Below, piece by piece: positions 15,448-39,383 of a stretch of 64,000 nt of DNA. The stretch is taken from positions 40,523 to 104,522 of the forward strand of contig RHPI01000733.1 in the NCBI GenBank assembly GCA_009103225.1, in the 5' to 3' direction. How positions within the stretch are numbered: the first letter of the stretch is position 1; each line of letters begins with the position of its first letter. The notes below the pieces were generated by a model. The model had not been told where the DNA came from, made no database searches, and saw only the letters and a program-made list of their open reading frames with translations. The DNA is from Chlorokybus atmophyticus (taxonomy: Eukaryota; Plantae; Mesostigma and Chlorokybus algae). The position numbers and the translations under genes were made by a program.

Positions 15448-16047
15448 TGTCATGCCTATTGCCCGCGCATACCAGCCTTCATCGCGCATGCCTACATTGA
15501 AACCATCGCCCAGCCTACCAGCATACCAACGCGCGCGCGTCACTGACCAGTAGCTAGGTCATGACTCTAAAGTAGTTCACGACCATATCCTACCCAGACA
15601 CCGCGCGTAGCTGTTCAATTGTGAGTTCAGTTATATAAGTTGCATTCTATATTGAGTGGTGATTGCTGTGAAAATAGCCTCGTATATGACCGTTAGCTTA
15701 TGCTCTGAACAGTCATAATTTGACTTGTATAAGTGGTCACAGTGTTCACCGAATCAGCTGGTGACATTGTGAGTGAGAAAGCTAAGAGCTTGTGAAACGA
15801 CTTGAACTACGAAAATGTCATCCCGGTTACCAAGAACCCCCTCACTATGTGAGTGCCTGTGCATGCTCGTGTGCATCGTGCTTGTCATTGCTGTGAGCTT
15901 GGTGTGCTTGGTTGCAGTGTTTGTTGGCATCGGTTAGGGCATGGTACTCACGTATTGCTTGCTCATTCACCTCACTTAACAGTGTAACACATTTTTCGCT
16001 CATGCAAAAAACTGTGTAAACAGCACTATAGTAGTGGCTTGTTGACT
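15448..16047 (+). repeat. About 600-bp direct repeat, copy 1 (probable remnant of the 5' LTR)
   Basis: Aligns by eye with 38577-39161 from TGTCATGCCTATTGCCCGCG to GCTTGTTGACT, with scattered substitutions and small indels. Confidence 0.8.
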
Positions 16048-16464
16048 CACATTGTCACCCTTTTTGCTCAAGTGAGTGCGTTGCATTCTGCATCAGATAG
16101 TGCAGTCTGTATTTGGGGACACATCCCTGTGCATTTGTTATCACTGTCATTACATAGTGCACACAAGCACTAGTGTGGTGAGTGGTAGCGGCATCGAGAC
16201 TGACAGTAGAGCACAAACACTCTACCCTGCATACACTTTCACCTGTGGACTAGCTATATGAGCAAGCCCACCCCGTTCTCTCCAATAGACGAGGGTGACC
16301 TCAGCAGCTTAAGCCCAACCTCCAATCTCACCTACGAGTGAACCAGCAACGGGAGCAGCGATTGTAGCAGCAGAGGCTCGCGTTCTGTCTCCGACTTTAC
16401 TCCGTTCTTATTTACTCCTCGGCATCGGGTTTCCCCACTCTAGTCCGACAGTGACGACTACAAA

Positions 16465-18216
16465 ATGGAGTCTTTCATCTCAACCACGTCCCTGCGCTTT
16501 TTCGGACGTGCTGGCACTACCTCGCTGGACGAATTTATCATTAAATTCTACTCCAATATGCGACAGTAGGCTCTGAAGAACAAAGACTGGTCGAAGGAGA
16601 TTTCTTTTCACATTGCTACTCGGTGTCTGGACCATGAAGCACATGATGTCTGGAAGTCTGTTGCTGAACTGCATCGAGTTGATGGCTATGGCGAGCTCGC
16701 CATTATCATAGCATCTGCGTCACTGCATAGTCCAGTAGCCGTCTTTCCACCTGCTACTCTCGCTGCAGTCACCGGGTTGTCCATAGCGGCAGCCATTGAC
16801 AGAGCAGAGGAGGAGTAATCTAAGTTGGTGATCATCAACCTGACCCCTGCAGAAATTGAGTTCAAGATGGCCGCACAACGGGCCCGGATCCCAGACCGTT
16901 CTGCTGCCATCCTTGAAGAATAACGAACTGCCGTTGAGGTGGGCACACCCCTGCCTTTGGCAACACCCGGCTTTCATGCGAGAGGCAGTGCTTTCACCCT
17001 CAGGTCAGTCGCACTGCGCGCAGTAGCTATCCTTGTAGGTGCTGCCATCTCTGACCCTCCCCTGAAAGATCTATACGCTGCACTTCGTCGCACCTTCCCA
17101 CCGCAGACCACTAGCAAAGTGGAGGAGTTGAGGCGGTTCCGACGCAAGCCCAACGAGGACCCTCTACGCCTGTACTCCGGACTGGAAGGGCTGTTAAAGG
17201 ACACTGACTACAAGATCTTTAATGATGAGGCTGCTGCAGTGGTATATGTCAATGAGTTGAATGCCACCCTGAGCGAGTCGACGCGCCAGACCCTGAACTA
17301 CAGCAGGCTCTTTGGCTACACGCTCAAAGAAGCTTTTGAGACTGCACAAGCCATCCAAGCGCTTGGTGTATGAGAAGGTAGTGCTGGACCAACCCCAGCG
17401 CCTCGCGGTTTGCAGCCAGCACAACTGTTGAGCCTCCTCGCCGCGAACATGGCCGGACGCTCCACCAGCAGGCGACAAAGGGAAACAGTCAGCGCATACT
17501 GCTTTGCCTGCCCCTATAGCCATGCTCTTCCTTGCGAGCGTTGGCGTAGTTGTTGGTGTTGTTATGGCCTCCGGTATGGTTGCTGTTGTAGCCACCAAAG
17601 TTGTTGCCGTTGTGGCCTTCAGTGTTGTTGCTGTTGTAGCCACCAAAGTTGTTGCCGTTGTAGCTGTTGGCGGGTCTCAACTCAGGGAACTTGAGCCAGC
17701 AAACTAACTCCAAATGGCCTCATGGCGCGTATGGCGCGCTTGAAGGAAGACAAGGAGCAGGACTACCGCGCCTGCTACTCTGCCCGATGGGCATTGATGA
17801 CTCCGAAGCACACGAGAGACACCGGCACTCCGTCACGTATTCAACCATCCCGACGAGTTCGAGGGGAAGCCGCAACATCGTCAGCAGCTACCTCCACTTA
17901 AGCCACCAGTGGTGCTGCACCAGCAGCAACAGTTACACCAGCTATGACGTCAACTCCGTCAACATCAGCAACTACTCTAGTTGCACCACAATTTGGTACA
18001 TCGTAAGCATCGTGACGCCAACACTGATGCGCACGCTGGCAACAGCCACTGCTGTCACCAACCCTGCGGTCGTAAGTCGCACAGGTCCCGCTCCAACTTC
18101 AAGACCACCTGTGTCAGCGAGCGTTGAGACCACTCTCGCGCCACTGAGCGGCACTCTCGCCACCACCGGCAATGCCATCGTGGAGCCCGCTGCCACTGCA
18201 GCGACCCGCGCAGCTA
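16465..18216 (+). pseudogene. Retrotransposon gag, 5' part
   Basis: ATG 16465 is in frame with ORF 16939-17373 (LRRTFPPQTTSKVEELRRFRRKPNEDP, gag-like). In-frame stops at 16567, 16816, 16921 and 17371. Interrupted at the TA at 18215-18216. Confidence 0.65.
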
Positions 18217-18769
18217 CGTCGCAAATTTTACATGGTGACTGACTAAGGACTGAGGGACTTATTGGTGCCTGAGCCTGCCTGTTGCTGCCTGAAATATTAC
18301 TTTTGGACTATTGGGTTTGCCGTTGGCTTAAGTGGACTGACGCAGACGGCCGCGGGCCGAAAGTGGTTGTCAGTGGCACTAACCGGCCGAGAGTTGTCAA
18401 CCAGTTACCCTTTGGTCGATGTGCACAGACGGCCGTTGACCGCTAGTTACGGACAGCTGACAGCAATAGCCGGCAATTTCTTTGCCGTTACACTGCTGTT
18501 AATATGTGACCCTTGCCATTTGACAAAAGTTGGCAATTCTTGCCGTAAGCCAACACTAACATGCCATGCAGCTTGTACAAACCTTGGACTGATTGTTTGG
18601 TCTTGCACCTAAAAGCCCACAATATATACAATGTACGGGCAGTGGTGAGAGTATGTCCACTTACAACTGAGCAGCCGACTTGCGCATGAAACTATCCTAT
18701 AACATTGAGTCTAGCTGTCGGACTCATGCGCAGCTTGTCAACCCGTGGTGCCTGCCTCAGAACTCCTCC

Positions 18770-19630
18770 TCAAACCCCCTCCTCCTGTTCCTCCTCCGAC
18801 GAGTCTTCTGCTTCAACGCCAGAGTCATCCACTGCCTCGCTCGCTGACAGTACAGCGGCTACTTCGTCCTTCAGCTTGAATGTCAGCGCCTCGCCGTGCA
18901 CGCGCATGCGCTTGATGGTCGCTTTGAGAGTGACCACCTGCATTTGGTAATGCTGTAAGAGTGGCGTGCTGCCAGAGGACTAGCCCATCAGCATACACAC
19001 GCTTACCTCGTCTTCCGCTTTGTTGCACTCCGCCAGGCAGACAGTCAGCCTGCCGCGCTGCTCTTGGTTCACTCTGACCAACATGGCAATCTGCAAGCAT
19101 ACTGCTTAATTACCGCTGGAAACATTAAACTAGGTCATAGATTACCCGTTCGTTTGACTCCGCAGCTTCTCTTTTGCGACTTGTGAGCTCCCGCAAGTAG
19201 AAATAGGCTGTGCATTTGCGAGATTGGTCATGCTGTTCATGTGCATGACACTGGAGGTTGTGCATGAGGGTGTGCATGTCGTATTGACAATGTATGTCAA
19301 GTGCAAGATACTTGAGGCTGTGCATGTGCAAGATAAAAGAACCCTAGCATGTGGCATTGACAGTGCATCGTAACCCACCTTGGTTATGCCAGTCTTGTTT
19401 GGTCCCTTCAATCATGTCGCCGTGGTCGCAGCTGCTGGTGGGTCGGATTTTCTTAGAGGCAGTATTGTGGTGTGCCTTTGCCCACTCGGAGGGGGAGCCC
19501 TGTAAGATATCGCCCGAGTCACTGTTGTCATTGGATGTGCCCTTGGTAGTCTTGGTGGGGTTTGACACCGAGGACACCCCTCCGGCACCCTGCCCGCCCT
19601 GTGCGAACATGGAATTCATCCTGGACCTCG
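18770..19630 (-). CDS. Transposon cargo ORF-A, multi-exon, unknown function, acidic tail
   Basis: Phase-0 spliced exons ending at 19146, 19090-19007 (IAMLVRVNQEQRGRLTVCLAECNKAEDE) and 18937-18770 (VVTLKATIKRMRVHGEALTFKLKDE...DSSEEEQEEGV*). The 5' end is unresolved. Confidence 0.45.
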
Positions 19631-20041
19631 ACCACAATGCCCACTATGCCCCTGGCAGCTCCGTCAACGATCTTCCAAACGCCACATACCCTCGGCATCA
19701 CGCCCCTGTAAGGGCATAGCTTGGCGGAGCTATCAATGGTGTTTTCATGCGCAGGGGGACTGACATTGCCAGAGTTGTCAATGGTACGAACTGCCATTGC
19801 CATTGTACAAAGGTACCATTTCAATGGTACCTTTGTATAATGCCTATACCTTGGGGCAAAGGCATCTTCGTACCATTGAAACGGTTCAATCAGAATATAT
19901 ATGTATATATATATATATCCAGACTCACCCTGGACGTTCAATGGCTCGATCGTACTATTATAATGGTGCGACGGAGCCAGTGACTGGCGGCCAAGTTTCC
20001 CGCCTCTGGCATGCAAGGGTAGCGGTAGCGGTGGCGGTGGC

Positions 20042-20073
<32 letters not shown>

Positions 20074-20140
20074 GTGTGCGTGTTGCTGGATATGATGCAG
20101 GTTACATTGGCGACACCTGTGTCGACGTTAGTAGTGAGAT

Positions 20141-23100
20141 ATGGGAGTCCTTTGTCCGTATTGCCACATGCGCTTCGCCACACGCAGCTCGGTCTACATG
20201 CACATTATTAGCAGCAGGGTGTGCAAGCAGATCAAGCTGTATGTCGGCCAGCGTCCATTACAGTACGATGCGGGTCATGTTGAACCGGGGAGTTCGATCC
20301 AGGATGCTCACATGCTTGTTGCTGAAGGATTCCTCCAGAAGACACACAGCAGCAACAGGAGGAGGAGGAAGTGAACGAGGGCTTTCGATGTGTGCGTGTG
20401 CCTGAGAAACCTGTGGCACGCCAACATGGAAGTGGAGGCGTCCCTTCGCAAGCGTCGGAATCCAGGTGGTATGGCTCGGAGCATGCTCTTGCAGTGGCAT
20501 TCGTGCAGTGCAACAACGGCCAAGGCCTGTCGGCCTCCGACATGGGGCGGATCATCAAGTGCATCCGAAATGCACACTTCCTGACGGAAGAGCTCCAGTN
20601 CCTAACGGAAGAGCTCCAGTGGGAGACCGGTGTGCATGCTGCCAACTACCTCCGGACCACGATCGCTTTCTCTCAGTTTGAGGTGTGTTCACGGTGTGCG
20701 GTGCATGTGCTTCAACCATCAGAGCCATGTCACATATGCACATGCGAGTGTGCTGCCGTATCAGAACTACGTGACGGCTGACCTGCGCAAGCCTGGAGAC
20801 CCTGAGGATCAGGACATCTGCGTCACATATATGCCGGCCAAGGTCTGTGAAATGCAGTACCTAATGCAGTATCGATGCAGTATCTATTCTGAGGCCAGCA
20901 TAGTAAGTAATGCTCTTGGTCGGAGCAGGTATGGCTCGCGCGGTTGTATGGCAATCCACATGCCGCCAATGGCTTCAATCTCCAGTACACTGGTGACGAG
21001 CACAGCTTTGGCCATCCTTCCACGGGCGATTGGTGGAAGGATGTGGAGGTGCATTTGAGGAGAGAGGTGGGGGAAGCGTCCTACTTGGCGCCTGCCATTC
21101 TGTACAGTGACAAGACCACGCTGGACAGCGCGGGCAAGCGCTCTGGCTACCCTCTGATGGCATCGCTTGCCAACTACAGTTGGGACATGTATGCTAGCAA
21201 CATGAGGGTTGTTATGATAGCGCTTCTGCCGGTGGTTCACGCAGTGGCCGGGCATCCCACCTGGGCGCAGGGCAAGGAATCGTTCTCCCTTCGAAAACGT
21301 GAGATTTTTCATGACGCTTTGAATATAGTGTTAGGGGATGTGAAGCGGGCGAGTTGGGAAGGTCTGCAGCTCATCGACCCAAATGGCATCGAGCGTCGTG
21401 TGTTTCTCGCGCTTGCCAACTACATCAGCGATTTGCAGGTAGTGGGCATGAATGGTTGTAACCGGATGCAGCCTGCCAGCAAATAGTGCATGGAGGATGT
21501 TGTCAGTAGAACATCTGAGTTTGTCGTGTTTTAGGAGACTGCCACACTTGCACGCACTGTGTCGGGCAACCAAACACGACATCCTTGCGATGTTTGTCTC
21601 GTCACCAAATCAGATCTGTTGTAGACGGATGAGGACTGGGAATTGAGAACCGAGGCCTTCTACACACCAGCACTACGTCAGCTGCGGGCGGACCTGCATA
21701 GCGGTGTTAGGAATGCACGCCAGCCAGCCAAGGCTTTTAAAGAGCAGCACTCCATGCATGTCGAGGAGGTAATGGTCAAATTACCGGCATTCGTGAGGAT
21801 GAATGGCTTTCCGTGAAACCAGGCAATGTGGTTTGGCAACAGAATGCACTGTGGGGTTGGCGACAGTCGCGGGTGCCGGGAGCTGACTGCTACTCTCGTC
21901 TTGCCCCTGACGCAATGCATGTGCTGGGAGGCATCATTGACCACCTGCTTGCTGCTGTGCAAGACGCCGCAAAGGAACGAATGCGTCCATCCACGAGACA
22001 AATTCTGCAGGCCAGGCACGTCTTTTGTGTTGCTTTTGTGTTGAACACTCAAGCCAACAACACGTGCTCACGAGCAGATGTGCACAGGCTGAATGCATGC
22101 AAGGCGACTCTGCGGGTTTCGCACTGCAAGGCACCCACAAGCACAGTAGATATCTTCCTGTCCGACCACTCCTTTCAGATGGTGGAGAAAGTGGCGGTGC
22201 TGCAGCTGCTGCCGGTCCTCGCAGACGGTTTGCTGCTCGACAGTGAGGGCAACGATTTCTTCACCATTGCTGCCGCATCGCTTGCCCAGTGGAACAAGAA
22301 GTTGCTGAAGGCGCATGAACACACAAGAGAGACCCTGACCACAGCCGACAACGAGCTGGCTGCCTTCAAAGCTGCAGTGTTGCATCCGCTACTGTCGTCA
22401 TATTCTGCACAGAAGTCAGGTTGGAAGATTGAGAAGATGCATCAGCTCACTCATTTTGGGCCGGCAATTGTCAGCAGTGGACACCCAGATTGGTTCAGCG
22501 CCAACCGCATGGAGCAGACGCACGCTCAAAATATTAAACGGTGGGCGCGTGGTGGCAACAACCGGGACTACCAGGCACGTATCTTGAAGGCATGGAGCTT
22601 TGCGGAATATGTGAGAGAGGATGGCATGGTCGTGGATCCCGAGATGCGCTCGGTCATGGCACAGGCGCGGCAGCAGTGCTGTAATGTCATGGAGAAGACG
22701 GACAAGTTGCTACAGATGGATGTGCTGACAAAGAGGGAGTCCAGCCCGTACTGGGACGGATCTGCGCGTAGCCGCCAAGTCGCCTTGAAGACTCCATTTG
22801 CCGACAAGCTGCCTGCCACCCTGAACAGGTGGTTGAGGAGGGAACAACTGGAGTTGGCCGACGGGTGGCGTGCTGTTCGCGTGGTGAACGGAGGCGCAGC
22901 GGTGTACATGACATTAGGAGTCAGCATGGCGCGCGCAACTGGGATGTTCCATGGGCGGCCTTGGTTCTCTACACTTGAGTTGGAAGGTGATGAGGACGGT
23001 GTGAACGTGACGTGGTGGGCTCAGGCACTCCTTTTTCTGCGCGTGGTGGTGTGGGGTGGTAGCGGCGAGCGCGTGTGGAAGGAGGTCGTGTTTGTCCGCT

Positions 23101-23300
23101 GGTACACGAAGCTGGATGTGACGAGCGACACAAAGTGCATCGCTCTGGAATGGGAAAAGCGTCGAGGCGGTCCACATCTCGATGTCGTGACTCTGGAGCA
23201 AGTAAAAGGCATTGTCCAGCTGCTCCCCATGTTTGACAAGGACAGCGCCCGTGTACAAGAGGGCAAGTATTGGATGAACGTTCATCGCACTTCCACGTGA
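20141..23300 (+). pseudogene. Plavaka-family transposase (N-terminal C2H2-like finger), disrupted
   Basis: Motifs PSTGDWWK, ILYSDKT, GYPLMASLAN, FHDALNIVL, LANYISDLQE, PCDVCLV, PDAMHVLGG, KMHQLTHF...G...SANRMEQTH, ARATGMFHGRPWF, VFVRWY. Exons 20141-20682, 20765-20842, 20929-21438, 21535-21768, 21843-23300. Frameshift near 20340 and TAG at 21622-21624. Confidence 0.85.
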
Positions 23301-23503
23301 CACATGTACTTGTCTCGCTACTCTGAGTTTGGAGCATATCAGTCAGTTAGGCATTGCTAATCGTATGCTAAGACTTTTGCATGTGGACGTGTACAATACC
23401 GGGCAGCTGTCACTGCACAACTGTCACCACAATCGAATGATCCATGCAACATTCAACAATCAGTCCGCCGTGTGGCATTAAGCATCAATACAGTGCACCA
23501 CAC

Positions 23504-25228
23504 TCAAGCCTCATAGTTCCATGACACAGGAGGGTAGTCACAGCGCATATCCATTGTTTCAAGCATGAGACGCCCTATGCACTCCGCCATTGCGGGAGGA
23601 ACTGCATTCGCTATGGAAACGGCCGAGGTCATCCATGGCACTCCCAGCGCTGTTTGCCACGCAGCAATGCCGCCCCTGGTGCTTGGAAGGCCATAGACCG
23701 GGTACATCTGCTGTGGCGCGTTTGATGTCACGATTGTCTTCTTCGCGCTAGCGGACAGGTGCGGCGATAGTAGTCCAACTGCCTTGCCCGCGTGCGAGAA
23801 GCGTGCTGGTGGGGTAGCTACCATTGGCTATGTCTCAAACAGACGGTGTCGGAAAGTTGATAGGCCAAACATTGTGCCATAAAGGGACAGATTGGGTCTG
23901 AATGAGGAAGCTGCTCCTGGCACATTCTCAATCACAAACTTGCCCTGGCTTGCAAGTAGCAGACGTCGGACGAGCGGTATCATATCTTGGTGTCTCCAGG
24001 ATGTGCCATGTGCCGCCCGTTGAGGTGCCGGGATAGCACCTGAATAGGCCTGGCATGGTGGACTGGCCCAGATGAGCTCGTACTCGCTCAGCTCTCCTGC
24101 ACTCAGGGTGCATCGCGGTGTATGAATGGCAGCGGGTACTCAGAAGAGGGACTTATGTCCATCCCGGTCACGTCAAAGCCTGCGTAGTATAGACCGACAC
24201 TGGCACCGCCACCGCCGCAGAATAGGTCGAGTGCCCTTGGTCTGCGTGTGCGTCCCAGCTTGTTGTCAAATGGCGTGTATGTGGTCAAGGCTGGCCGTGG
24301 TGCTGGCCAGGGACTAACAATGATGCCGTCCGGGCTTACTTTGCGACTGACGTTCTCCCCTCCGGCGCGCAGAACATGGCGTGCCCCGTCAACTGATGTG
24401 TACGCGAATACGTTGTGCCCTTGAAAGTTTTTGGTTTGTGGTCGATCACCGTCATTGAATACTATACGGTGCTGCCCTGCAAAGACATTTTCCATTGCAC
24501 CATGCATATATGATGCGTCCTCAATCTCGCACGCCACGAAGCGATGCTGACCTGACGCTTGCTTGAATGATTCCACAACGCCCGCATACCATTCCCCATC
24601 CAGCGGCCAATGCACCATGACACTCACACCGATCAGCTGCTCGCATCCCAACTTAACTGCGTTCCGCAGCCGATGCAGTGCGCTGTCCAACGGTCGATGG
24701 TCTGCCTCCTCTACAGCGGCCAGGGGATGGAACTGCCCACGCCCACACCGTGCAAGACTGCTCTGAATGCGACAACAGCTTCAACATGCATGAAATAAGC
24801 ATACGCCCAACATAACATGCAGTGATACGTCGCGGTCCACTCTTGTGGATTACCTCCACAGCATCCACCACCTGTCCACTAACCACATGTCCCGGTGTTG
24901 TCCATGTGAAGAAGCGCATGGGTTCCCCTCGCCACTCGAAGCATGAGCGCGAGCACGATTCGCACACGCACTGCACGCAATGGAAAAACTCGGGTTCCTT
25001 GCACAGCACTTGGCCGAGGCGGCAGCCAAACACGTCGACATTGTGTGTGGTGTGATGCCAGCAAGCAGCACTAAAACCGTGGCACACTGTCTGCACTCGC
25101 TGGCATTCGGTCAAGTGTGCTCGCATTTGCTGCCTACGGCCATTGGCACATACGTACGCATTGCATTGTGGGCACACCAAGCATGGTCTCCTAGGTGAGG
25201 GTGATTCAACTGCTGCCGCCGACATCAT
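23504..25228 (-). pseudogene. Cys-rich / Tudor / C5-cytosine DNA methyltransferase fusion (about 520 aa when repaired)
   Basis: Exons 25228-24854, 24762-24552 and 24476-23504 splice in frame. Tudor-like LIGVSVMVHWPLDGEWYAGVVESFKQASGQHRIVFNDGD. MTase motifs: I RALDLFCGGGG, IV IWASPPCQAYS (24050-24061), VI FVIENVPG (23921-23929), VIII GTMFGL..RHRLFE, X IANAVPPAMAECIG. One frameshift at about 24105-24112 and a TAG at 23828-23830. Confidence 0.85.
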
Positions 25229-25800
25229 GCAAAATAGGAATCGGCACGGCTGCCCACAAACTGAGCGAGACTTTAGGGTATGGGCATCAATTTAGGGTTG
25301 CCAGCTTACGAACCCTAAATGGGTCAAACTTCAAGTGAAGCACGACTGTACCTTATACGCTATTGCAGTACCATGCATGGTACTACATCAACATGAATGG
25401 TACTCNTACAGTACAAGGATACTCGCAGGCACGATCGTGGAGTAATACTGTGCTGTTATGCCATGGAACCCAAAGCGCTGTCCGAGTTTGTTGCTGTCAA
25501 CCACGCTTTAAACCAGCGAGGTATGCAAGCCATGCACTGACTCATGCGCCGGGCAGTCATCATACACATGTACAGCCAATGCTTCTAAAACAGCAGATAT
25601 CTGGTGCACCATGCACCATGCTGCAACTATACATGTACCTACATGGTTCACAGGAAGCCAACACAAAACTACAATACATGCACAATTGGCATCAAGGCGG
25701 GGGCCAAATCACCGCCGACACGTTGGCGTCTTGCATCAGGCGTGGCGACCAAAACGGGTGAGGTTGCTTGCAGAATGGACACGCTTGTAGATTCTTTGAT

Positions 25801-26727
25801 TTATTTGCCACAGTCTTCTGATGTGCTATGATGCAGACATGGCACATCGCTTTCTTGCAACAGGGTGTCTCCCCATCCGCTGGGGGGGGGTGGCTCTTCG
25901 ATGCGACAAATTAGCACACATGGTGCACGCGGGTGTGCAAGCTGCCTCTGCCACCAAACTCTCTTATTGCGTCGCAGGCGTAGCGACTCCCATCTGAATG
26001 GCGCAGCATAACGCTCCACTGCCTGCACGATCACCTGACGCCCATCTGCCGCCATACACCACCTGCTGGTCTTGGTGGTCTCGTCTAGCATGCGTTCATC
26101 CAGGCCCTTGACATGGCTGTCGTCACTCGTGTACTCCCCCGCATCGTCATTTTCTTCGAGCTTCCACAGAATCAGCTCGACGTGCCGTATGACATACAGC
26201 CACTGCCAGCCAAAGCATGCCAAGTACAGCTCGAATGGTTTTACTTGCCACCCAGTATGTTTGCTCAGGTAGTGGCACACATCTCGACCCGCATTAGTCG
26301 ACATCGACAGGTACATCTGCTGCAGCAGGTCGAAGTTCTGCTCCGCAGATAGCTCTTGCACATTGCCGGGGTGCTGCGTCAGCAACAACACCATCATATC
26401 GAGGACGGCGAGGGGCAACAACGTACTACGGATGGCCATTTCGTGTATGGGTTCCAACCACGGCCAATCCCCAGAAGTCTGTTTAGACCGCATTCTCCGC
26501 GTTTGCTCCCACTTATTGCAAACTTTCGTCACCCACCTCGAGGCATGCCGCATGCGGTGATGCAGCGCGTCTTGGGCGTACTGTAGGGTGATCAACTCCT
26601 TTGCACTACGAGTTAGCCCCCCAAAGCGTCTGCGCGTCGGTGCTTTGAGCTTAGGCAGCTCGTGCCGCACCGGCTGTCTCTCTGGACGATGCTGAGCAGC
26701 CACTAGCCTTTGGCCGTGACGTGGCAA
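25801..26727 (-). CDS. Transposon cargo ORF-B, unknown function (up to 308 aa)
   Basis: Long open non-repetitive ORF with protein-like composition; no family recognised; start uncertain. Confidence 0.5.
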   Translation of the reverse strand: MPRHGQRLVAAQHRPERQPVRHELPKLKAPTRRRFGGLTRSAKELITLQYAQDALHHRMRHASRWVTKVCNKWEQTRRMRSKQTSGDWPWLEPIHEMAIRSTLLPLAVLDMMVLLLTQHPGNVQELSAEQNFDLLQQMYLSMSTNAGRDVCHYLSKHTGWQVKPFELYLACFGWQWLYVIRHVELILWKLEENDDAGEYTSDDSHVKGLDERMLDETTKTSRWCMAADGRQVIVQAVERYAAPFRWESLRLRRNKRVWWQRQLAHPRAPCVLICRIEEPPPPSGWGDTLLQESDVPCLHHSTSEDCGK

Positions 26728-26740
26728 CCTCGGCCGTCAG

Positions 26741-28011
26741 CAACCCTTCCCCAAGCAAGTGGAAGATTGGCAACGAGGTAAGCACTGTGTGACACTGTGA
26801 CACTGTGTGTATGTGTGTAACGGATTGTTCTTCTGTCAAATCATAAATGGCCACTGGGTAGAGAGCCACATTTATCCCAAGGAGGACACTATTCGTAACG
26901 TCATGTGTCAGGTGCTGTGAATGCTTCATGACCGCACTGCACCGTGACACTGACCAACCTGCCCGTGACAGGTAGTTGGCTTCGACCATGACGACGAGGC
27001 CGATGCGGCCAAGTTCTATGAGGTGTACTGGACTCCCAAGGAGTGCCCCTTCCACTGGAGTGTCGCCCTGAAGAAAGCTACGCAGGTCCGGTCTGAGAAC
27101 GCTACCAAGATCAAGCATGTCCTTGAGAAGGAGTACAAGTGGACACTGTTTAACAGCAACAAGCGCAAGTGAGTTGGGTCCCTCACCACCATGTCTGCTA
27201 TGCAACACCGCCTTCTTACTTAGCCTCCATACACACGTACTCATCTCGCCTATTGTAACCGATTCAATCAGGCACATCGATGCCCTAATGGACCCCGAGA
27301 CCCAAAAAGCCCAGATGCGCAACGCGCTCCAAAGTAAGTCACATGCACTATTCTAGCCTGGTGCAGGCTCAACTTGAACTATCTATTTCGTGACTAATGC
27401 CTTGTCGGTATGACTGTCGCAGACAAGTCATGGCGGAGATTTGAGGTGACCGACACTGCAGACCCGGAGCGGAGGAGATACATCCATGAATGGGGCAATC
27501 CCATAATCTGGCAAATGATCGTGCAATGCTGGTCTTACGCCGTCACTACACCTGGTCGCCGGCAGCTGACAGTCAACCACCTCGCACACCTGTTGCTTAC
27601 GGTGAGCACTCTGAACTCCATCATTAGCAATTCAGGAATGCTGTAGCCCCAAACTTCAGGCTTGCATACGCGTTGCAGTGAATAGTGGCTTTCGATGCCA
27701 CTAAGACATGCCTGTAAACTGCGCAGGTGGAGCGCATCCTAAAGGGCAAGGATGGAGACCCTCTCCTAGCTGCCAGCATAAACACACATGAAGAGTACCT
27801 CAGCGAAATCAACACCATGATCATGTCAATGAAGCGGGAGATGAGGCAACGGTACGCAGCCCTCCAGCCATTCACCCTTGTGAAACGCCGCACTGCATCT
27901 TGTGTCGAATACCTGAAAGAGTCCAATCGGCGCCGGCCGCAAGAGAAAGCAGCTCGTGACCCGCTCGCTGAGGCAGAAGCGGCATTTGATTGGCTGGCAC
28001 AACCGTTTTAG
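26741..28011 (+). CDS. Transposon cargo ORF-C, multi-exon, unknown function
   Basis: Phase-consistent GT-AG exons ..-26777, 26862-26911, 26972-27168, 27272-27333, 27423-27601 and 27727-28011 give an open protein (ESHIYPKEDTIRNVMCQVVGFDHDDEADAAKFYEVYW...EWGNPIIWQMIVQCW...AFDWLAQPF*). The 5' end is unresolved. Confidence 0.6.
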
Positions 28012-28494
28012 GAGGAAGAGCAAGCTCCGGCGTCTCCTCCACAGGCCCCAGCGCGTGGTGCTTTGTTTCGTAATGACGAGACCAGCGATGATGGAGAGGA
28101 GCTGTAGCGCAGTTGGTAGTCCGTTTATCTGGTAGTGTACATAGCTACAAGGCTCTTGTGACTGAGTGTTGTGCATCTTAAACCAGCTCAGTCAATCGTC
28201 ATTATGCTCATGCACATCAATACTTGCATCCCTATGATATACAACAGAACTGCATTCGAGTCACATAATCGACCTACAAGCCTTGGCAAGTGACTGAGAG
28301 ACACTGTACACATTTCAGGTACATGTACACAGCACAGGCACATAGCAATGCTGGACGTCAGTGACAGTCGCGTGTAGTCAAGCTATGCAAATACATATGA
28401 CGACAGTTAGGCATTGGTCACCTTCAGTTGTTAAAGAATGCCTTATTTTGTCGATAATTACCTAGTTGGTGCTTGTGAATTAGGCTTAGTCGCC

Positions 28495-28790
28495 TGCGCT
28501 GGACTGGTGTGTAACCTGCAGGTGCCTGTCACATAGGCTGAGTCACCTAAGTAAGACTGATGTGTAGCTTACAGGTGCCCGTTGGTTAGTTGTAGTCACC
28601 TAATAAGGCCTGATGTGTAACTAACAGTTGCCTGTAAATTACATAAAGTCATTTGTTAAGGCCTGGTGTGTGACTAACAGGTGCCTGTTAATTATATAAA
28701 GTCACCTGTTAAGGCCTGATAGGTAACTATCAGGCGCCTGTTAGTTAGGCATAGTCAACTGTTAAAGACTAGATTGTAACAAAAAAGGCC
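28495..28790 (+). repeat. Subterminal tandem array, 53-bp period, about 5.5 diverged copies
   Basis: CAGGTGCC-like core recurs at 28519, 28572, 28625, 28678 and 28731. Confidence 0.85.
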
Positions 28791-28930
28791 TTACAGTAAC
28801 GAAAGTTACTATTAGGTCCCTGTATCAAGATTACAGGTGGCCTGAGCCACGACAGTCTCAATTAGCGTCCTCAGGTGCACGGCCGTTGCCAATATTTAGT
28901 CGGCCGGCAGGGAAAACATATTGCGACGTA

Positions 28931-31470
28931 CATTGCCCGCCCTCGACGTCATTCAAGCTGTCCCGCGAGATTAGCAAGCTGAGCGCGCATGGGAGACCAT
29001 CATGCGTGGAGTAGATCCCACTACCATTGCTGTTGGGCGCGTAAGAGAGCGCACAATACGCGTTGAACGCAGTGACCGAGTCTTTCCTCTACCTGAATAT
29101 CACACCCTGCCAAAACAGACTCAGCGGCAACTGGAGGCTGAAATCCTCGCCGGCACGGCGCCTCCCATGCGAGACCGCGTCTGTATGGTCAGAACACCTA
29201 TTGTACTGAAGTTTGCACTACAGCTGTTCTGAACTCTACATAACAACATACAGACTGCGCCACGCCAGCCCGCATCAGTCCGCCATGAACCTTTTTAGTC
29301 GAGCTCGCCGGACACGTATTGGGACCGGCAACCAAACGCACAGCAGCACATCGCTGATACAGCCAACATGCCTATCGGTGACAATGAAGCACTACGACCC
29401 CTCAGTACCGTTCGGCTTCATGAGCGATACACCGCTCTAGAACAGGCGTTCACCTGGCGACAGGACCAAGCGGCAGCAAGTAATGCAAGATCGCAAGCCC
29501 TTGCCGATGCTCGCGCTGGTGTTCTTTAGTCAATAGACGCTGGCCCATCATTCAGCACGACACCTCTCGTCGGTGAGCCCGACATTGACCAGGCGCGGGC
29601 GCGGGCCTAGCAAACCAGGGGTTTTACCGCCCCGCTGCTACCCGCCTTGTTGGAAGACTTGCCTACCGATCAACGGGATCTAGGGAGAGGCTACTCCACA
29701 CCACAAGGGTGTACACGACGGGATGGAGCAGGCTCAATTGGAGAATAGCAACTTCGCACAGCCCTGTTGCGACAAGCAACCATGCTACATCGATAAGAAG
29801 GCATCGGCCAGAGACGGATGATGGGGATGCGAGAAGGTGGCAATGCAGCTCGAGCAAGACTAGTGACTTGGCTAGTCACCACTCACCCCGCAGTGCCTCT
29901 GTTCGCCTTCGCTACCAGGTTGTTATGGTTGAACGCCTTTTTTCGCTCGCTACGGCAAGCCTATGACGAGGTTGCCTCGGCAGCCACTGACACCTGAGAA
30001 GGAGCTTAAGAGGCCATACTGAGGTTGCCCGGGGTGGAAGCAGCGCAGTAACGCAGACGCATCGCAGCTGCTTATGAGCAGCATGTCCGACAGCCAGAAA
30101 TTAACCTCACTGTGCGGGCACGAGCAACAACGGTGCTAGAAGTGGGGGTGATCAATGGCAGATGGGATGCCTACATTGTAGGGATCCTAAGGGTTCCCAC
30201 CATCACCCATGACATAAGAGCGCGGCTTCTGCGCGCAGTGTATCTCCAACCCATGCCTCAGAATCACCGCTGAAGTGATGTGGTCAATAATCCAACATCC
30301 ACATGGGAAGGTACACTGGTCAGGGATGCAGCTCATGCGGTACGCTGGACTTATGTGGAAAAACAGGCTGCACGAGAGGCGGGCCCACCAACACCCGGTC
30401 CTCCAGGGTTTCCGCAACAGCCGCTGGCTATGCCGCCAGGTATGACCCCGGCCACACAGAGGCGCAATCCCCCTGCGCCACAACCAGGGCAACCACAGGC
30501 AGCACCGCCAGCACCCAGGCCGCAGCGCATATACCAACAGCCAACACAAGGACGGTTCGGGCCAGGCCGCGGTCAAGGAGGTTGTCAAGACCCAGCTGAT
30601 CGAGGGGCGCTTGCCGCACTGCGCTCGACACCATTGGAGGAGACTGCAGCAGCAGTCACCCCACGCACACGCTACCGACGATTCAGGCGGCTGCGCATCC
30701 ACGCCAATGCAGCCATAATCGCCAACCAAGGCAAGCATGTCACTATCAATGGACGAGCACCCAAGCGTGTGATGCTGGACTCTGGAGCTGAGCCTGTCAT
30801 CATCGGACATTACCTCGCACGTGACCTTGGCAGCATGGCACCAGCGCTGAGCTGATGCCATGCTCATACGTGCTCGACACAACAACCGGCAGCCGTGACA
30901 AGGTGATTGGCATCACCAAGCAAGCCCTCTGTATTCGCTTGATTGGGGTGGACCCTTCCCACAGCACCGAGGTCATACAGAAGTGTGTGGTCACCGATGC
31001 AAGATCCATTGACCTGTTGCTGGGACAGGACTTCAACTTCCCTGATGGCATGGGGCTGTACTGAGAAGGCATGGTTTCGTCCTCATTAAGATGAGGAGGA
31101 TGGAGAGGTTCAAGGATATCTGCCTCTCGAGCTGGTGGCTCGCACTCGCTCTCACCGAAGGTCAGCTGCAACAGCCATCTACAGGTCGATGTCGACAACC
31201 ACTGATAGGTCAGCTGCAACAGCCACCCACAGGTGGGTTTCAACAGCCACTAACAGATCAGTTGCGGTGGTCACCCACAACTCGGACCAAGACTCTCCAA
31301 TCCCATACGACGAATCTCAGAAAGATGCCACTGAAGACGTGGCCCACCAGAAACCAGCGGAACGCCGCTGGTGCGCACAGGTGGTCGCACATCTACTATT
31401 GATCAGACTACGGCTCACTTCACGGTTCCCTCTCTACAGGGACCAAGCTGCGGTCCAGGAGCAACACCAG
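28931..31470 (+). pseudogene. Retrotransposon gag 3' part and aspartic protease, degraded
   Basis: Continues the gag frame after the insertion. GKHVTINGRAPKRVMLDSGAEPVIIG and VTDARSIDLLLGQDF are retropepsin-like. Confidence 0.7.
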
Positions 31471-31909
31471 CACACGGATTGACGTTCAAGGACCATGAAT
31501 GGTCGGTGACGCAGGACCGGGATTTCCCCCTGCTAAATGAAATCGGGGGGCCTTGCATGGTCTGTTTTTCATCGACAGTCGGACCATTCATGGTCCGAAT
31601 TTCACGTGAATGGTACCATTGTCCCTTGGTACGCACCACTTAAGGTCCGGCCGATTACTGTTGCGTCAGGACCAGATATGGTCCGGCCATCGGACCAGGG
31701 ACTAAATCATATCATTACAAAACTTCAATCATAACTGGTCCGGCCAGCGGACCATGGACCGAAATTTATTATGGACCAATGTAAATATGAGTGCAAATGC
31801 AGTAAAAGTTGACACATCTTTGTCGGCGGCACCGGCCACGCCCAACCTGCGGCGCACGAGGCCGCGGCCAGCTCCGCGGCGTTAGTGGAATGATTAGTCA
31901 AGAACACAC

Positions 31910-31981
31910 GCATCGGCCGGATTCGAACCCAGCGCCTTTAGCATATCAAAGACGACGCCCTAACCACTAAGCTACAAGTGC
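31910..31981 (-). ncRNA. tRNA-derived sequence (A and B boxes), not a canonical tRNA
   Basis: Minus strand TAGCTTAGTGGTTAGGGCG...GGTTCGAATCC; the anticodon stem does not pair. Confidence 0.4.
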
Positions 31982-32859
31982 ACGTACCGGTAGGGTCGCA
32001 TGGCAACCTACATCATGTAATTTATTGCATGCGCCGACAGCCGCTTGGCGACTGTCGGCCGGCGGCAGTAATTGCCGATGGACAGTCGGAGATTGTGTGT
32101 CGCTTTGATAGGCCCACAGGCTGAGCCTATGCAATTGTAGCATTTATAGGCTGTACCAGTTACATGGACGGTGGTAAACTACATACCGGTAGCCGCGAAC
32201 TCGGCGGTTGTCAATACGCCAGTACAATTTGTAGACTTGTTAGGGGCTGTCATTGTGACAATGCTTAGTGATAGTAGCCAAATTGCGACTGTCAATGCAG
32301 CCAGTGTACCTTATCGGGCTGTCGATGATTCTGTGGTCGCATGAGGCTTTTATAGGCCATTTATGAGGTTATACAAGTAAGGCTATAAGTCATAACATCT
32401 GACATTGCTTGCGCTTTCGTTTCATACACAGTATTAAAACCAATCATACCATAAACTACGCCTAGCAATGCAACATGCGAACAGCATCAACATATGTATT
32501 CATGGTATGATGTTAACGGTTGTGAACATTATGATAATGTAATAACCAACGAACTATATGAAATGCAATTAACACGCGCAATGCATGGATGTAAATTTGA
32601 TATAGTTATTATTTTAGACTATGTAATTGTACAGTAATCATAACACTTTGTACAATCATATTTTTATACATTATTTAAGATGTATATAATTTTACATATG
32701 AAAGGTCTAATGCACATGTGTACGCGCATCAATATACTTACAACAATGTATGTACATGAAATGATAGATATGAAGTAATTGCACGGATGCAAATTGCGGC
32801 CGCAATACGTCAACAATTTTTGCTTGTATACCTTAAGCCTATTCCTACATGCACACACA

Positions 32860-33022
32860 AACACACGTATATTTGTCAACATATATATACATATGCATGT
32901 ATACATATATATATGTATATATATATATGTGTGTGTGTATATATATATATGTATATATATATGTGTGTGTGTATATATACACATATATTTATATGTATAC
33001 ACATATCCATTTATACATATAT
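32860..33022. repeat. (TA)n/(TG)n microsatellite
   Basis: Imperfect TATA/TGTG run inside the CACAC element. Confidence 0.9.
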
Positions 33023-33595
33023 AGGCCACAAGTGGACAGCCGCAACTGGTCGGCGGCTGTCAAGTTAAAATGTACATGGACAGCCGGCTGTCAATATACA
33101 TTGACAGCCGCCGACCATTTGCGACTGTCCACTTTATGGTAAGCGGCGACAGTCGGTGCGGCCTGTCATTTATTAAATGATACACACAATGTACCTATGT
33201 ACTCGTACATGCAATAACGATACTTCAGTCATGGTACACGTGTAGCGCGCCCTGCAGGGCCGCCAACCAGCAACATTGCTGGTCCATGCCGCCCCATACA
33301 TGGTGCGGCACGGACCATGTACGGTGCGCGGCTGCCGGGCCGCTGAGCCGCGGGCCCACTCCTGGTCCGCATCCAGGAACCAGCGTAGAGTACTGGTCCG
33401 TGCCGCACCATACAAGGTGCGGCACGGACCATATGTGGTGCGCGACTGCGCGCCAGGTGTTGGGGCCCCAAAAGGACCATGGACGGTCCGTCCCTCGCGG
33501 ACCAGACACTCGTGGTCCGCGGGGACGGACCATGTATGGCCCGCGGGGTCCGTGGAAGGACCATGCATGGTCCCCGAACGTCAATCCGTGTGCAG

Positions 33596-35060
33596 GTGGC
33601 CACTGGAGTTTCACGTATTCCGTCAACAACAAGGCATCACCGTGTTGAAATCATTTGGAGGTATAGGTAGTGGCCTCGCTGCTGTCCTCAACACCGGCGC
33701 GACGGTCACCAAGTACTTCTACTTCTGTGACCCTGATCCACATGCACAGCTTGCCCTAAGCCACCACCTGCGCCACTGCAAGGCGATTTGAAGGCACTGT
33801 CACAACATCCGTTTAATCACTACGGATCACCTCCTGGCGGTGGGCAACATCGATCTGCTGATAGTAGGATGGGAGTGTCAAGAACACTCCAGAGCAGGCA
33901 GACGTCAAGGACTCGCTGATTCTAGCTCGCGACTACTCTGAGAATTGATGCGTATCATTGAAATTGTCATGGCCCACTCGACCACAAAAGACTTGGTGAT
34001 GTAACGGGAAGGTACATTGAAATTACCACCACTCGACCACAAAAGACTTGGTGCTTTTATGGTCGATTTGTGGTAATTTCAATGTACCTTCCCGTTACAT
34101 TCCCCCCACTTAAGAACGCTGACGTCCCCGGCAGCTGGCGCCCCATCAGCTGGGGAATCATCCCAGGGGTCCAATTTAGGGTCCGTCACCGGCCCCACCA
34201 CCCAAGGACCGGCCAATTTAGGCCCATACCGGTCAACGCGCGCATAGCGCACCGCTGCCGGCCCCACAGGTCACGTCGCCGCGATAGGCAGGTCGCGCTC
34301 TACCGCGCCGTTTCAACTGGTCAGTTCGGCGCGACTGTCATTAGGCAAGTCGCGACCCATCGATGATGGCACTTATACAGTGACCATTTACGATGATTAT
34401 GGGATCGCGAAACAGCGACCACGGAATTCGTGTGCAAGGCAGGAATCGAATCCGGGTCTCAAGCTCCAATGACCAATGTCATGGCCCAGTCGACCACAAA
34501 AGACTTCGTGCTTTTATGGTCGATTTGTGGTAATTTTAATGTACCTTCCCGTTACAACAATTTTGCAGAGCAACCAACTGTGCAGGCCTCCAGGATATAT
34601 CATCGAGAATGTGCACTTCGAGAACGATAAGCGCCATCACGTGTCCAACAACTTTCGACAGGTGTGTTCTTTACTGAAGCACCCTTCCAAAATCAACGCA
34701 GCGCGTCAAAACTCCCGTGCTCATCGCGTTCGCACCAAGTGGACCAACCTGGCTGCCGTTGAGGATCTCTTTGCTGCTGAATATCTGCACAGCAATTGTC
34801 CACGCGATCTCACCGTCGACGCTCCCCACTCTGATGTCTTACCCATAATCATGCGCCTTCCGCAAGCAAGGCGAAGGCATGGTGTTGGATCCCAACACAG
34901 GCCAACTGGAGGAACCCAACGGACGTGAGCGCGAACGCGCCATGGGATTTTCTTCAGGCAGTATCACAAGTTCCACGCTGACCGACAATCAACAATGTCA
35001 ATTCTTGAGATGCGCCATGGACCAGAATAGCATGGTGTGGTTATTGAAAGTATGCTTTGC
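33596..35060 (+). pseudogene. Retrotransposon-borne C5 cytosine methyltransferase domain, split by a TRIM
   Basis: GITVLKSFGGIGSGLAAVL (motif I), IDLLIVGWECQEHSRAG (motif IV), GYIIENV (motif VI), NAARQNSRAHRVRTKWTNL (motif VIII). TGA stops at 33789 and 33939. The 3' end is approximate. Confidence 0.8.
33965..34556 (-). mobile_element. TRIM-like mini LTR element (about 80-bp TG...CA LTRs)
   Basis: LTR 34477-34556 and a rearranged copy at 33965-34099. On the minus strand a PBS-like TTGGTCATTGGAGC follows one LTR and a PPT AGTGGGGGGAA precedes the other. No coding capacity. Confidence 0.7.
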
Positions 35061-35299
35061 TCTCCAGGACCGCCATGTGTTCTTTTAGGAGCTCGAACAC
35101 GTGGCCGGGGGGTGGGCCAATCGCGTGCGAGAGACCAAAGCGGCACACACCACCCTCGAAATCGCCCATATGGAGGAACAGGCAGCAGTCACTGTAGAAG
35201 ACATCCCAGTATTCGCCAACGCTACCTCTTGGTCCCATGCGATTGCACCACTGGCTACAGGCCAGACTCGAAAACAACTTGAGGCTCTCCTCAACAAGT

Positions 35300-38295: not shown

Positions 38296-38345
38296 CAACT
38301 AAGCTCTGGCGCTGGAACCTCCCCAGAAGCTCAGGGGGGGTGGCT

Positions 38346-39383
38346 TGTTAACTGTGTGTCCTACAGCATGTACACTAAGGAGGACACCGCCTCCACATGT
38401 CCGTGTGATTCAGCAACAGCGAAGCAGCTCCACCAAGCACTCCTCGCCATACAAGCTGGGTTATCTTTTACTTGTGCTACATGTTACAACATGTTGCAGC
38501 AACATGGCTAGCAAGCATGTCTTTCCCTGCAGCGGCCCGAGACAGTGTGGCCCTCGAGTCTCCTCGACCCAACAGCTGTCATGCCTATTGCCCGCGCATA
38601 CCAGCCTTCATCGCGCATGCCTACATCAAAACCATCGCCCAGCCTACCAGCATACCAACGCGCGCGCGTCACTGACCTGTAGCTAGGGCATGACTCTAAA
38701 GTAGCTCACGACCATAGCTTACATAGGCACCGCGCGTAGCTGTTCAGTTATGAGTTATGTTCTATATCAAGTGGTAATTGCTGTGAAAATAGCCTCGATA
38801 TGACCGTTAGCTTATGTTCTGAACAGTCATGATTTGACTTGTATAAGCAGTCACAATGTTCACCGGATCAGCTAATGACACTGTGAGTGAGAAAGCTAAG
38901 AGCTTGTGAAACGACTTCAACCGCGAACACGTCATCCCGGTTACCAAGAACCCCCTCACTGTGTGAGAGCCTGCGCATGCTCGTAGGCATCATGCTTGTC
39001 ATTGCTGTGAGCTTGGTGTGCCTGGTTGCAGTGTGTTTGTTGGCATCGGTTAGGGCATGGTATTCACGTATTGCTTGCTCATTCACCTCACTTAACAGTG
39101 TAACACATTTTCCGCTCATGCAAAGAACTGTGTAAACAGCACTACGTATAGCTTGTTGACTGTGTGTCCTACAGCACAGCATGTACACTAAGGAGGACAC
39201 CGCCTCCACATGTCCGTGTGATTCAGCGACAGCGGAGCAGCTCCACCAAGCACTCCTCACCATACGAGCTGGGTTATCTTTTACTTGTGCTACATGTTAC
39301 AACATGTTGCAGCAACAGGGCTAGCAAGCATGTCTTTCCCTGCAGCGGCCCGAGACAGTGTGGCCCTCAAGTCTCCTCGACCC
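38346..39383 (+). repeat. 3' LTR region with A-B-A' structure
   Basis: A = 38346-38570 is repeated as A' = 39154-39383; B = 38577-39161 matches 15448-16047. Starts with TG directly after the PPT. Confidence 0.7.

Follow-up and report, generated by a model that had tools for sequence, protein, structure and literature searches.

The 64,000-nucleotide (nt) stretch of Chlorokybus atmophyticus DNA analysed here (contig RHPI01000733.1, positions 40,523 to 104,522; 'the window') contains a decayed copy of a Plavaka-type DNA transposon. Alongside its transposase, the element carries a minus-strand cargo gene predicted to join a Tudor domain to a small phage-type C5-cytosine methyltransferase. We propose, with a confidence of about 55%, that the gene is the cargo of a Plavaka-type family in which undamaged copies probably code for an enzyme that reads histones and writes on DNA. 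The features that bear on this proposal are, in window coordinates:

18217..28928, no strand assigned: Plavaka-type (EnSpm/CACTA group) DNA transposon, decayed copy, 10,712 bp, ends placed from an empty-site contig
18215..18216, no strand: target site duplication (TSD) TA, left copy, from the empty-site contig and end sequence
28929..28930, no strand: TSD TA, right copy, from the same evidence
18217..18224, plus strand: left terminal inverted repeat (TIR), 8 bp, perfect, CGTCGCAA
28921..28928, minus strand: right TIR, 8 bp
20326..23300, plus strand: Plavaka transposase gene in several exons, start not fixed, broken here; PF18759 on 20911-21483
24854..25228, minus strand: cargo exon 1, start codon and Cys/His-rich region, no family assignment
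24552..24762, minus strand: cargo exon 2, a linker plus the Tudor barrel's first half with cage Trp (24609-24607) and cage Tyr, placed by its match to Protein Data Bank (PDB) entry 7DE9
24477..24551, minus strand: predicted GT..AG intron of 75 nt that keeps the frame and contains no stop, a decayed tandem copy of the 75 coding bases after it
23504..24476, minus strand: cargo exon 3, second Tudor half (F-x-D-x-D), linker and phage-type C5 methyltransferase, placed by its motifs
24110..24111, minus strand: frameshift, four bases lost in the window copy and present in contigs of runs X1 and X3
23828..23830, minus strand: in-frame TAG after motif VIII, read in the window sequence
26704..26709, no strand: point at which a block found in other copies is missing from the window copy, placed by loose ends that contigs share in runs X1 and X3 (on both sides) and in X4 (on one side)

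The cargo gene and its transposon

A preliminary description of this DNA, made from its sequence, had read three in-frame minus-strand exons here, encoding a Cys-rich region, a barrel and a C5 methyltransferase. This structure was recovered: between 25228 and 23504, exon 1 (375 nt), exon 2 (211 nt) and exon 3 are separated by GT..AG introns of 91 and 75 nt whose removal joins them in frame, and an intact copy would yield a protein of ~520 amino acids (aa). In exon 3, motif I lies near 24228 and the catalytic Cys at 24055-24053. An upstream exon is required because the downstream frame has no Met ahead of the Tudor domain; the Cys/His-rich region of exon 1 obtained no assignment from Pfam (weak rows only), PHROG or the PDB, and its atlas matches were all <0.9.

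The 75-nt intron and the 75 coding bases that follow it are identical at 33 of 75 positions (shuffle p 1.4e-4), a level reached by only 7 of the 10,562 element segments compared, every one of them at the intron start. This suggests that the predicted intron arose by duplication inside the Tudor domain and was then rescued by splicing. The duplicate reads as GQHR...NVFA repeated in frame, a candidate for intron gain by tandem duplication within a Tudor domain.

To look at other copies, contigs of four public sequencing runs were aligned to 17600-29600; five runs from three studies match all or part of the region, and one of the compared runs may be the window's own source. The methyltransferase is present at family level and is linked to the transposase in other copies; it is not a one-off insertion, an outcome that the preliminary description had left open. 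In run X1, a 2521-nt contig spans 22341-24857, from the 3' part of the transposase through the methyltransferase and Tudor domain, and differs from the window in 34 letters and in one gap of 4 nt, the frameshift itself. Contigs of X1 (7.22 of 7.22 depth) and some of X3 (133.9 of 284.8 depth) have the four bases that the window lacks at 24110, so the frameshift is a property of the window copy and not of the family. Contigs of run X3 cover all 30 bins of the region; 979 of them lie on it, 199 being <90% alike. Depth in X1 is ~5-11 over most of the element and 0-3 in the flanking bins, and although read depth is not copy number, this depth and the divergence of the X3 contigs are what a multi-copy family would give.

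The window copy is dead, its cargo gene carrying the one frameshift and one stop that had been described earlier, and its transposase being broken. At 73 of the 147 differences from X1, a G or C of the contigs is matched by an A or T in the window, a pattern from which we infer decay by cytosine deamination.

The transposase gene converges tail-to-tail with the cargo gene inside the element's termini, as first described; its last frame stops at 23300, leaving 203 nt to the stop codon of the cargo gene. One of the 13 frames scanned matches PF18759 (Plavaka) with E 1.6e-21 and 77.3 bits against a curated cut-off of 26.3. The stretches YSD, SD, DAMH and SANRMEQTH are what we take to be its DDE/DxxH core. 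Compared with other copies, the window transposase has a 4-nt indel at 20344 and a 21-nt indel at 20584. The latter corresponds to a 21-nt tandem duplication at 20584-20625 (LTEELQ twice, with an N), absent from the X1 and X3 contigs. For the 519-aa transposase frame, no relatives were found among 8000 protein candidates or 15 metagenome stretches.

The ends of the element are fixed by an empty site. In run X3, one contig passes from 18214 straight to 28929 and omits 10,714 nt, the element and one TA, and the interrupted frame of the surrounding Gypsy gene reads on through this junction. The 8-mer of the TIR occurs once per strand in the window, at the two element ends. Duplications of 4 bp (ACGT) or 3 bp (TAC) were considered and dropped, since only the 2-bp reading registers both inverted ends and fits the 10,714-nt skip. 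A repeat search over the whole window, dominated by (CA)n-type repeats, missed the 8-bp termini.

The 8-bp TIR, the 2-bp TA duplication and the empty site agree with Plavaka membership, for which the accessible text of one paper gives a TSD of 2 or 3 bp (PMC12730594). The same text groups Plavaka with EnSpm/CACTA and as unrelated to the Kyakuja-Dileera-Zisupton (KDZ) elements (PMC12730594); the earlier wording of Plavaka as KDZ-type is therefore withdrawn. In agreement, Pfam returns Plavaka only, and the TSD is 2 bp against 8 bp for Zisupton. Within Plavaka, the 2-bp TSD agrees with PlavakaA, which has 5'-TGT..ACA-3' at its ends, but the element has CGT..ACG, one transition off at each end, and we do not assign it to that lineage. 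Nor does it carry the PlavakaB termini, 5'-CATCA..TGATG-3'. Because contigs of three runs share loose ends at 26704/26709, the full-length element is longer than the window copy. Near the right end lie subterminal tandem-like repeats (28501-28783, ~69% over 177 nt), possible binding sites for the transposase or an accessory protein.

The Tudor barrel and the methyltransferase

The best PDB sequence match of the barrel is 7DE9 (E 3.2e-5), the Tudor domain of Arabidopsis RDM15 bound to histone H3 monomethylated at lysine 4 (H3K4me1); the next rows have E 0.3 or worse. A search of 1.84 billion protein representatives gave seven matches to the barrel region among the best 150 of 1502, and all seven carry PF21743. 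Those with named sources belong to flowering plants and to Cymbomonas, a green alga. With an alignment seeded with Tudor sequences, a model of the unspliced barrel stretch again retrieved 7DE9 at rank 1 in a fold search (E 2.3e-3, root-mean-square deviation 0.7 over 37 columns), with no match below 1e-3. By sequence and fold match, the predicted barrel is a Tudor domain of the plant PDS5/RDM15/MSH6 type (PF21743). The earlier reading, a Tudor for methyl-Lys/Arg marks, holds as to the fold and is narrowed to this type, with the residues of an H3K4me1 pocket.

In RDM15, Trp616, Tyr623 and Tyr641 hold the methyl group, and Asp643 and Asp645 the two ammonium protons, according to the accessible text (PMC8184781). 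In the spliced model these positions read W, Y, F, D and D, at +0, +7, +25, +27 and +29 from the aligned Trp and without gaps; four of the five residues that bind H3K4me1 are thus identical and the other is a Tyr-to-Phe change, a tally that applies to the spliced model only. The pocket residues of an RDM15-type H3K4me1 reader thus appear to be present, conditional on the predicted splice. Two observations concern this splice. When the stretch is aligned with seven Tudor domains, the 75-nt intron accounts exactly for a gap of 25 residues. Against a profile of 17 Tudor repeats, the spliced form reaches 51.9 bits in one piece, compared with 39.9 + 3.8 bits unspliced; the seeds of this profile came from searching with the same barrel, and the comparison between the two forms alone counts. 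An AlphaFold model of the unspliced stretch has a mean predicted local distance difference test score (pLDDT) of 55.9, with three strands folded and the remainder uncertain; it builds on the decayed duplicate and excludes the F-x-D-x-D part of the pocket.

The C5 motifs named in the preliminary description are all read in the translated product and in order: I (DLFCGGGG), IV (SPPCQ), VI (ENV), VIII (RHR) and X (ANAVPP), with the frame change near 24110 falling between I and IV. The frame covering motifs IV to VIII gave 2636 matches among 3445 candidates and is, like the barrel's match to 7DE9, no chance resemblance; the best 120 of these, as listed, are 41-55% identical and mostly 190-250 aa long. 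Matches also include 252 phage records, the 25 listed being all annotated as DNA methyltransferase, and the best PHROG profile is phrog_363 (E 1e-9 and 3.3e-7). In an alignment of 129 family rows, no row departs from the S, from E-N-V or from the second R of R-x-R (129/129), and a single row lacks the Cys (128/129); the window enzyme retains all of them, its S-adenosylmethionine (SAM)-binding motif being intact as well. Only ~60 residues separate motifs VIII and IX, which points to little built-in sequence reading. Neither the 120 matches listed nor the gene model contain a BAH, PWWP, SNF2 or chromo domain. We classify the enzyme, from these sequence, profile and domain comparisons and with a tree confined to family rows, as a short (~210 aa) phage/bacterial-type methyltransferase (PHROG 363) and not as DNMT1, DNMT3, DNMT5 or CMT.

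Its closest relatives carry a different reader. In P0140 and P0192, proteins from the search, a methyl-CpG-binding domain (MBD) is inserted after motif VIII (PF01429, E 2.8e-8 and 2.3e-6), and P0002, P0015 and a gene of the metagenome locus L103 (9881-11017) have an insert that aligns with it. In all five, the MBD or its degenerate form is inserted at the site of the target-recognition region. The structure modelled for P0192 (pLDDT 54.5) matches DNMT1 and M.HaeIII first, and its insert matches MBD2. The PF00145 cut-off is passed by P0002 and P0015, while P0140 and P0192 give no PF00145 row.

FastTree groups the window enzyme with P0140 and P0192 (0.89, 129 rows). In a quick tree of 40 of 130 rows (8 chosen and 32 random), the Shimodaira-Hasegawa-like approximate likelihood ratio test gives 81 for that grouping and 87 when all six are taken together. 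Just 4 of the 129 rows (the window, P0002, P0015 and P0192) share a C-terminal signature, and three (the window, P0140 and P0192) a YPP tail. Trees were preferred to BLAST bit ranking for placing the enzyme; in the ranking, short phage-type proteins come out on top, as the alignments of the relatives are broken up by their insert. With long branches, the grouping with the MBD-bearing relatives has moderate support. The MBD-type insert is absent from the window gene and from the X1 contig, and taken together the placements suggest reader swapping among mini methyltransferases. The likely history, read from an unrooted tree, is that a phage-type enzyme entered eukaryote-associated DNA and gained an MBD, which was here swapped for a host Tudor.

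How widely the insert-bearing group occurs was followed in other collections. Among 166 loci compared, L103 alone has the long insert. P0002, P0015 and the alignment A3 found no matches in viral contigs; A3 retrieved from prokaryotic genomes two ordinary Streptomyces members without the insert; A2 against viral contigs and A3 against metagenomes worked as generic patterns, with 11 and 10 of 64 parts scanned. The match of P0218 was rejected as a spurious repeat match. L103 (CENJ01001511.1, 1-16963) is a metagenome contig, dense in genes and without introns, whose eukaryote-like genes include RING, cold-shock, trypsin-PDZ, DUF3431, YHS and GT47-like ones; no viral hallmark gene was found among the 19 frames scanned, and we infer that it is a giant-virus fragment. 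Four further proteins from metagenome contigs (P0001, P0003, P0135 and P0241) are tandem double-domain short C5 methyltransferases of ~410-450 aa.

A proposed reader-writer and its alternatives

Under our proposal, both predicted introns would be spliced, giving one reader-writer protein. Its Tudor domain would dock on methyl-lysine nucleosomes, most likely those with H3K4me1, as in RDM15, and the small phage-type methyltransferase would add 5-methylcytosine (5mC) nearby. Because the enzyme appears to have little built-in sequence reading, the reader would supply the targeting. We consider these three steps jointly (splicing, an H3K4me1 pocket and reader-directed writing) to have slightly better than even odds. 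In a fourth step, the element would benefit by methylating its own body in transcribed, H3K4me1-marked chromatin; such self-methylation could tune its expression or give it the look of ordinary methylated host chromatin. This benefit is the weakest step, plausible but with the odds somewhat against it.

It is not settled why DNA methyltransferases are carried by transposons. The element offers a testable handle on this: its ends are established, related copies exist, and the closest solved relative of this compact enzyme's reader binds a mark of transcribed gene bodies and not of heterochromatin. If active, the enzyme would show a phage enzyme becoming chromatin-targeted. A bolder version, in which phage-derived mini cytosine methyltransferases were adapted to eukaryotic chromatin by reader swaps, virus-like relatives taking an MBD into the target-recognition slot and this transposon an H3K4me1 Tudor, and this element is a mobile, active H3K4me1-guided 5mC writer, is a long shot. 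If true, a transposon would provide a way to gene-body-like methylation that does not depend on DNMT1/DNMT3, and the enzyme would be a programmable methyltransferase scaffold of 250 residues. The MBD-bearing relatives indicate a yet undescribed group of mini methyltransferases with fused readers, which might serve as small epigenome editors.

Several observations weigh against the reader-writer proposal. Both splice junctions are predictions from sequence alone. In the profile searches proposed in the preliminary description, PF00145 scores 16.9 bits against a cut-off of 22 on the broken, unspliced window pieces, and Pfam returns no Tudor family row for them. The H3R2-contact residues of RDM15, Glu647 and Gln654, are not kept (Pro and Gly by count), and with these contacts absent the histone mark specificity may differ from that of RDM15. 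The TAG at 23828-23830, which is not among the 40 of 413 window-versus-contig differences listed, may be common to other copies. No protein with both a Tudor domain and a methyltransferase was found among the best 150 of 1502 matches or among 1554 candidates compared with the frame that holds the Tudor and motif I, nor was such a fusion found in the 289 proteins and 166 loci compared, so that the fusion rests on close relatives only. Our literature search returned no biochemical test of the PHROG 363 family, and two published classes of retrotransposon DNMT gave, according to the accessible text, no methylation in yeast (PMC5890265).

Some of these points would also be expected if a virus-derived methyltransferase and a host Tudor exon were passive cargo, hitchhiking without benefit and perhaps without a product. 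The confinement of the fusion to close relatives and the broken state of the window copy fit this view, and orphan DNMTs of viral origin can be silent in eukaryotic genomes, as the accessible text of one study reports (PMC12344493). Passive cargo would hardly be expected, however, to keep its catalytic motifs and all five pocket positions at only 40-55% identity to its nearest relatives, or to have two introns, with a duplicated and decayed piece being exactly what one of them takes out; the frameshift, moreover, is absent from the main contigs. We regard this as unlikely, and to the same degree we doubt that the enzyme is active but works mainly in trans, its Tudor domain taking it to H3K4me1-marked host gene bodies or rival elements, where it would alter the host methylome instead of marking the element. 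Action in trans would fit the lack of a recognised binder of the element's own DNA in the protein and the genome-wide presence of H3K4me1 over gene bodies, which accessible text describes for Chlamydomonas and land plants (10.1101/2025.06.06.658275). It would also fit the CG depletion found throughout the window, alike inside and outside the element (0.76-0.81), but host DNMTs explain this depletion equally well, and accessory genes of such elements are usually read as self-serving in the accessible parts of two reports (PMC12730594, 10.1101/2025.02.11.637652).

The protein could instead be a binder and not a writer, the Tudor and methyltransferase folds tethering the element or its transposase to chromatin or shielding it from silencing, with methyl transfer minor or directed at another substrate. 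In the literature found, activity of the short enzyme family is annotated only, and chromodomains are described in one accessible text as guiding retrotransposon insertion (10.64898/2026.05.21.726589). A pure binder would not need the intact catalytic Cys, ENV, RxR and SAM-binding motif, and the fold matches of the P0192 model begin with two methyltransferases, which makes this a rather improbable account. Least probable of all, and by a wide gap from our proposal, is an error in the gene model, with the 75-nt segment retained or exon 1 unjoined, leaving the barrel distorted or the reader and enzyme as separate proteins. The segment is indeed in frame and stop-free, and the three strands of the unspliced fold use the decayed duplicate and leave out F-x-D-x-D; against this stand the canonical GT..AG ends, the exact 25-residue gap and the observation that the Tudor domain and motif I share one open frame even if the segment stays in.

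Related systems and remaining features of the window

The preliminary description knew of no reader-fused DNMT in a Plavaka element. This stands for the Tudor fusion, of which we found no report in a transposon in the open-access literature (Repbase, subscription journals and preprint supplements may hold some), and the same literature yielded no report of the MBD-inserted group. It does not stand for the broader theme, since red-algal Plavaka elements with a methylase and SET and EpiLTRs with a DNMT and chromodomain had been described. What appears new is the combination of a cut-and-paste element, a phage-type mini C5 enzyme, an H3K4me1-type Tudor and MBD-bearing sisters. Published systems are compared here as their accessible texts describe them.

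The giant Plavaka elements of the red alga Bostrychia share the Plavaka transposase and several accessory genes, one of them a DNA methylase joined to a chromatin domain (10.1101/2025.02.11.637652). Their PAG2 gene, however, joins an N6/N4 amino-methylase (PF01555) to a SET writer, whereas the window gene joins a C5 enzyme to a Tudor reader; the elements measure 17-19 kb, compared with 10.7 kb plus the missing block here. EpiLTRs of Cymbomonas and Euglena likewise combine a cytosine methyltransferase with a histone reader in a transposon, but they are retrotransposons with a chromodomain and a DNMT4-related enzyme within pol (10.64898/2026.05.21.726589), while here a separate spliced gene of a cut-and-paste element carries a Tudor and a phage-type enzyme. 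SymbioLINE-Dnmt, SymbioDIRS-Dnmt3 and KnitGypsy-Dnmt3 are transposon-borne C5 methyltransferases with proposed self-methylation; they differ in being retrotransposons and mostly DNMT3-derived, with no Tudor noted in the accessible text (PMC5890265). Fungal TET/JBP transposons, including PlavakaB, also have DNA-modifying cargo in complete cut-and-paste elements, but as erasers and not writers, and with termini unlike those of the window element (PMC12730594).

Among host proteins, the Tudor domains of RDM15/PDS5C and plant MSH6 are of the same single-Tudor type, with the same H3K4me1 pocket positions, and RDM15 links H3K4me1 to DNA methylation (PMC8184781, 10.1101/2024.10.15.618488). These are cohesin-related and repair proteins without, in the accessible text, a methyltransferase, and the H3R2-binding residues are not kept in the window gene. 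The bdelloid rotifer N4CMT fuses a bacterial-type DNA methyltransferase to a reader in a 'histone-read-DNA-write' arrangement (PMC8885841). It is a host gene that marks transposons with N4-methylcytosine through a chromodomain for silent marks; the window gene is transposon-owned, of 5mC type and with a Tudor, and if active would be the mirror case, with the parasite rather than the host owning the read-write enzyme. Orphan eukaryotic DNMTs are said, in the accessible text, generally to lack companion domains (PMC12344493). The PHROG 363 actinophage-type C5 enzymes, together with P0140, P0192, P0002, P0015 and the L103 gene, belong to the same catalytic family at 40-55% identity; the phage members have no reader, the relatives have the MBD or MBD-like insert after motif VIII, and the window gene has an N-terminal Tudor. 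Mariner-1_OLpv (OLpv presumably being Organic Lake phycodnavirus) is, like the window element, a DNA transposon with a C5 methylase. It differs as a viral element with a restriction-type endonuclease partner and, in the accessible text, without a chromatin reader (PMC3627910).

The following features complete the element and its immediate surroundings:

25801..26703, minus strand: additional cargo frame within an open frame of 311 codons, no family assigned
26969..28011, plus strand: probable further multi-exon cargo gene, with coding-like frames and weak Pfam rows only
15448..39397, plus strand: older, decayed Ty3/Gypsy long terminal repeat retrotransposon with a PHD finger, which hosts the element insertion, placed by repeats and domain matches

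The 311-codon frame obtained no Pfam, PHROG or other assignment. Near the left end, short frames without assignment at 18770-19650 may represent an additional minus-strand cargo gene. The Gypsy element is delimited by a repeat pair (15448-16047 and 38577-39161, 89.7% identity) and has matches to protease, RNase H, integrase zinc finger and PHD; the PHD finger, which follows the integrase, makes it a second reader-bearing transposon in the window. Within it, a palindromic or inverted-repeat block at 33000-34560, with arms of 47-49 nt that are 90-94% complementary, is probably a small nested non-autonomous element. A 264-nt stretch occurs with 100% identity at 35488-35751 and 41853-42116, the latter adjoining an N at 42117, and is either a recent duplication or an assembly artefact. 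Host-like genes lie at 101-628 (PHO4 phosphate transporter, with upstream stops), 4631-5659 (aldo-keto reductase) and 58640-59059 (CASP C-terminal exon).

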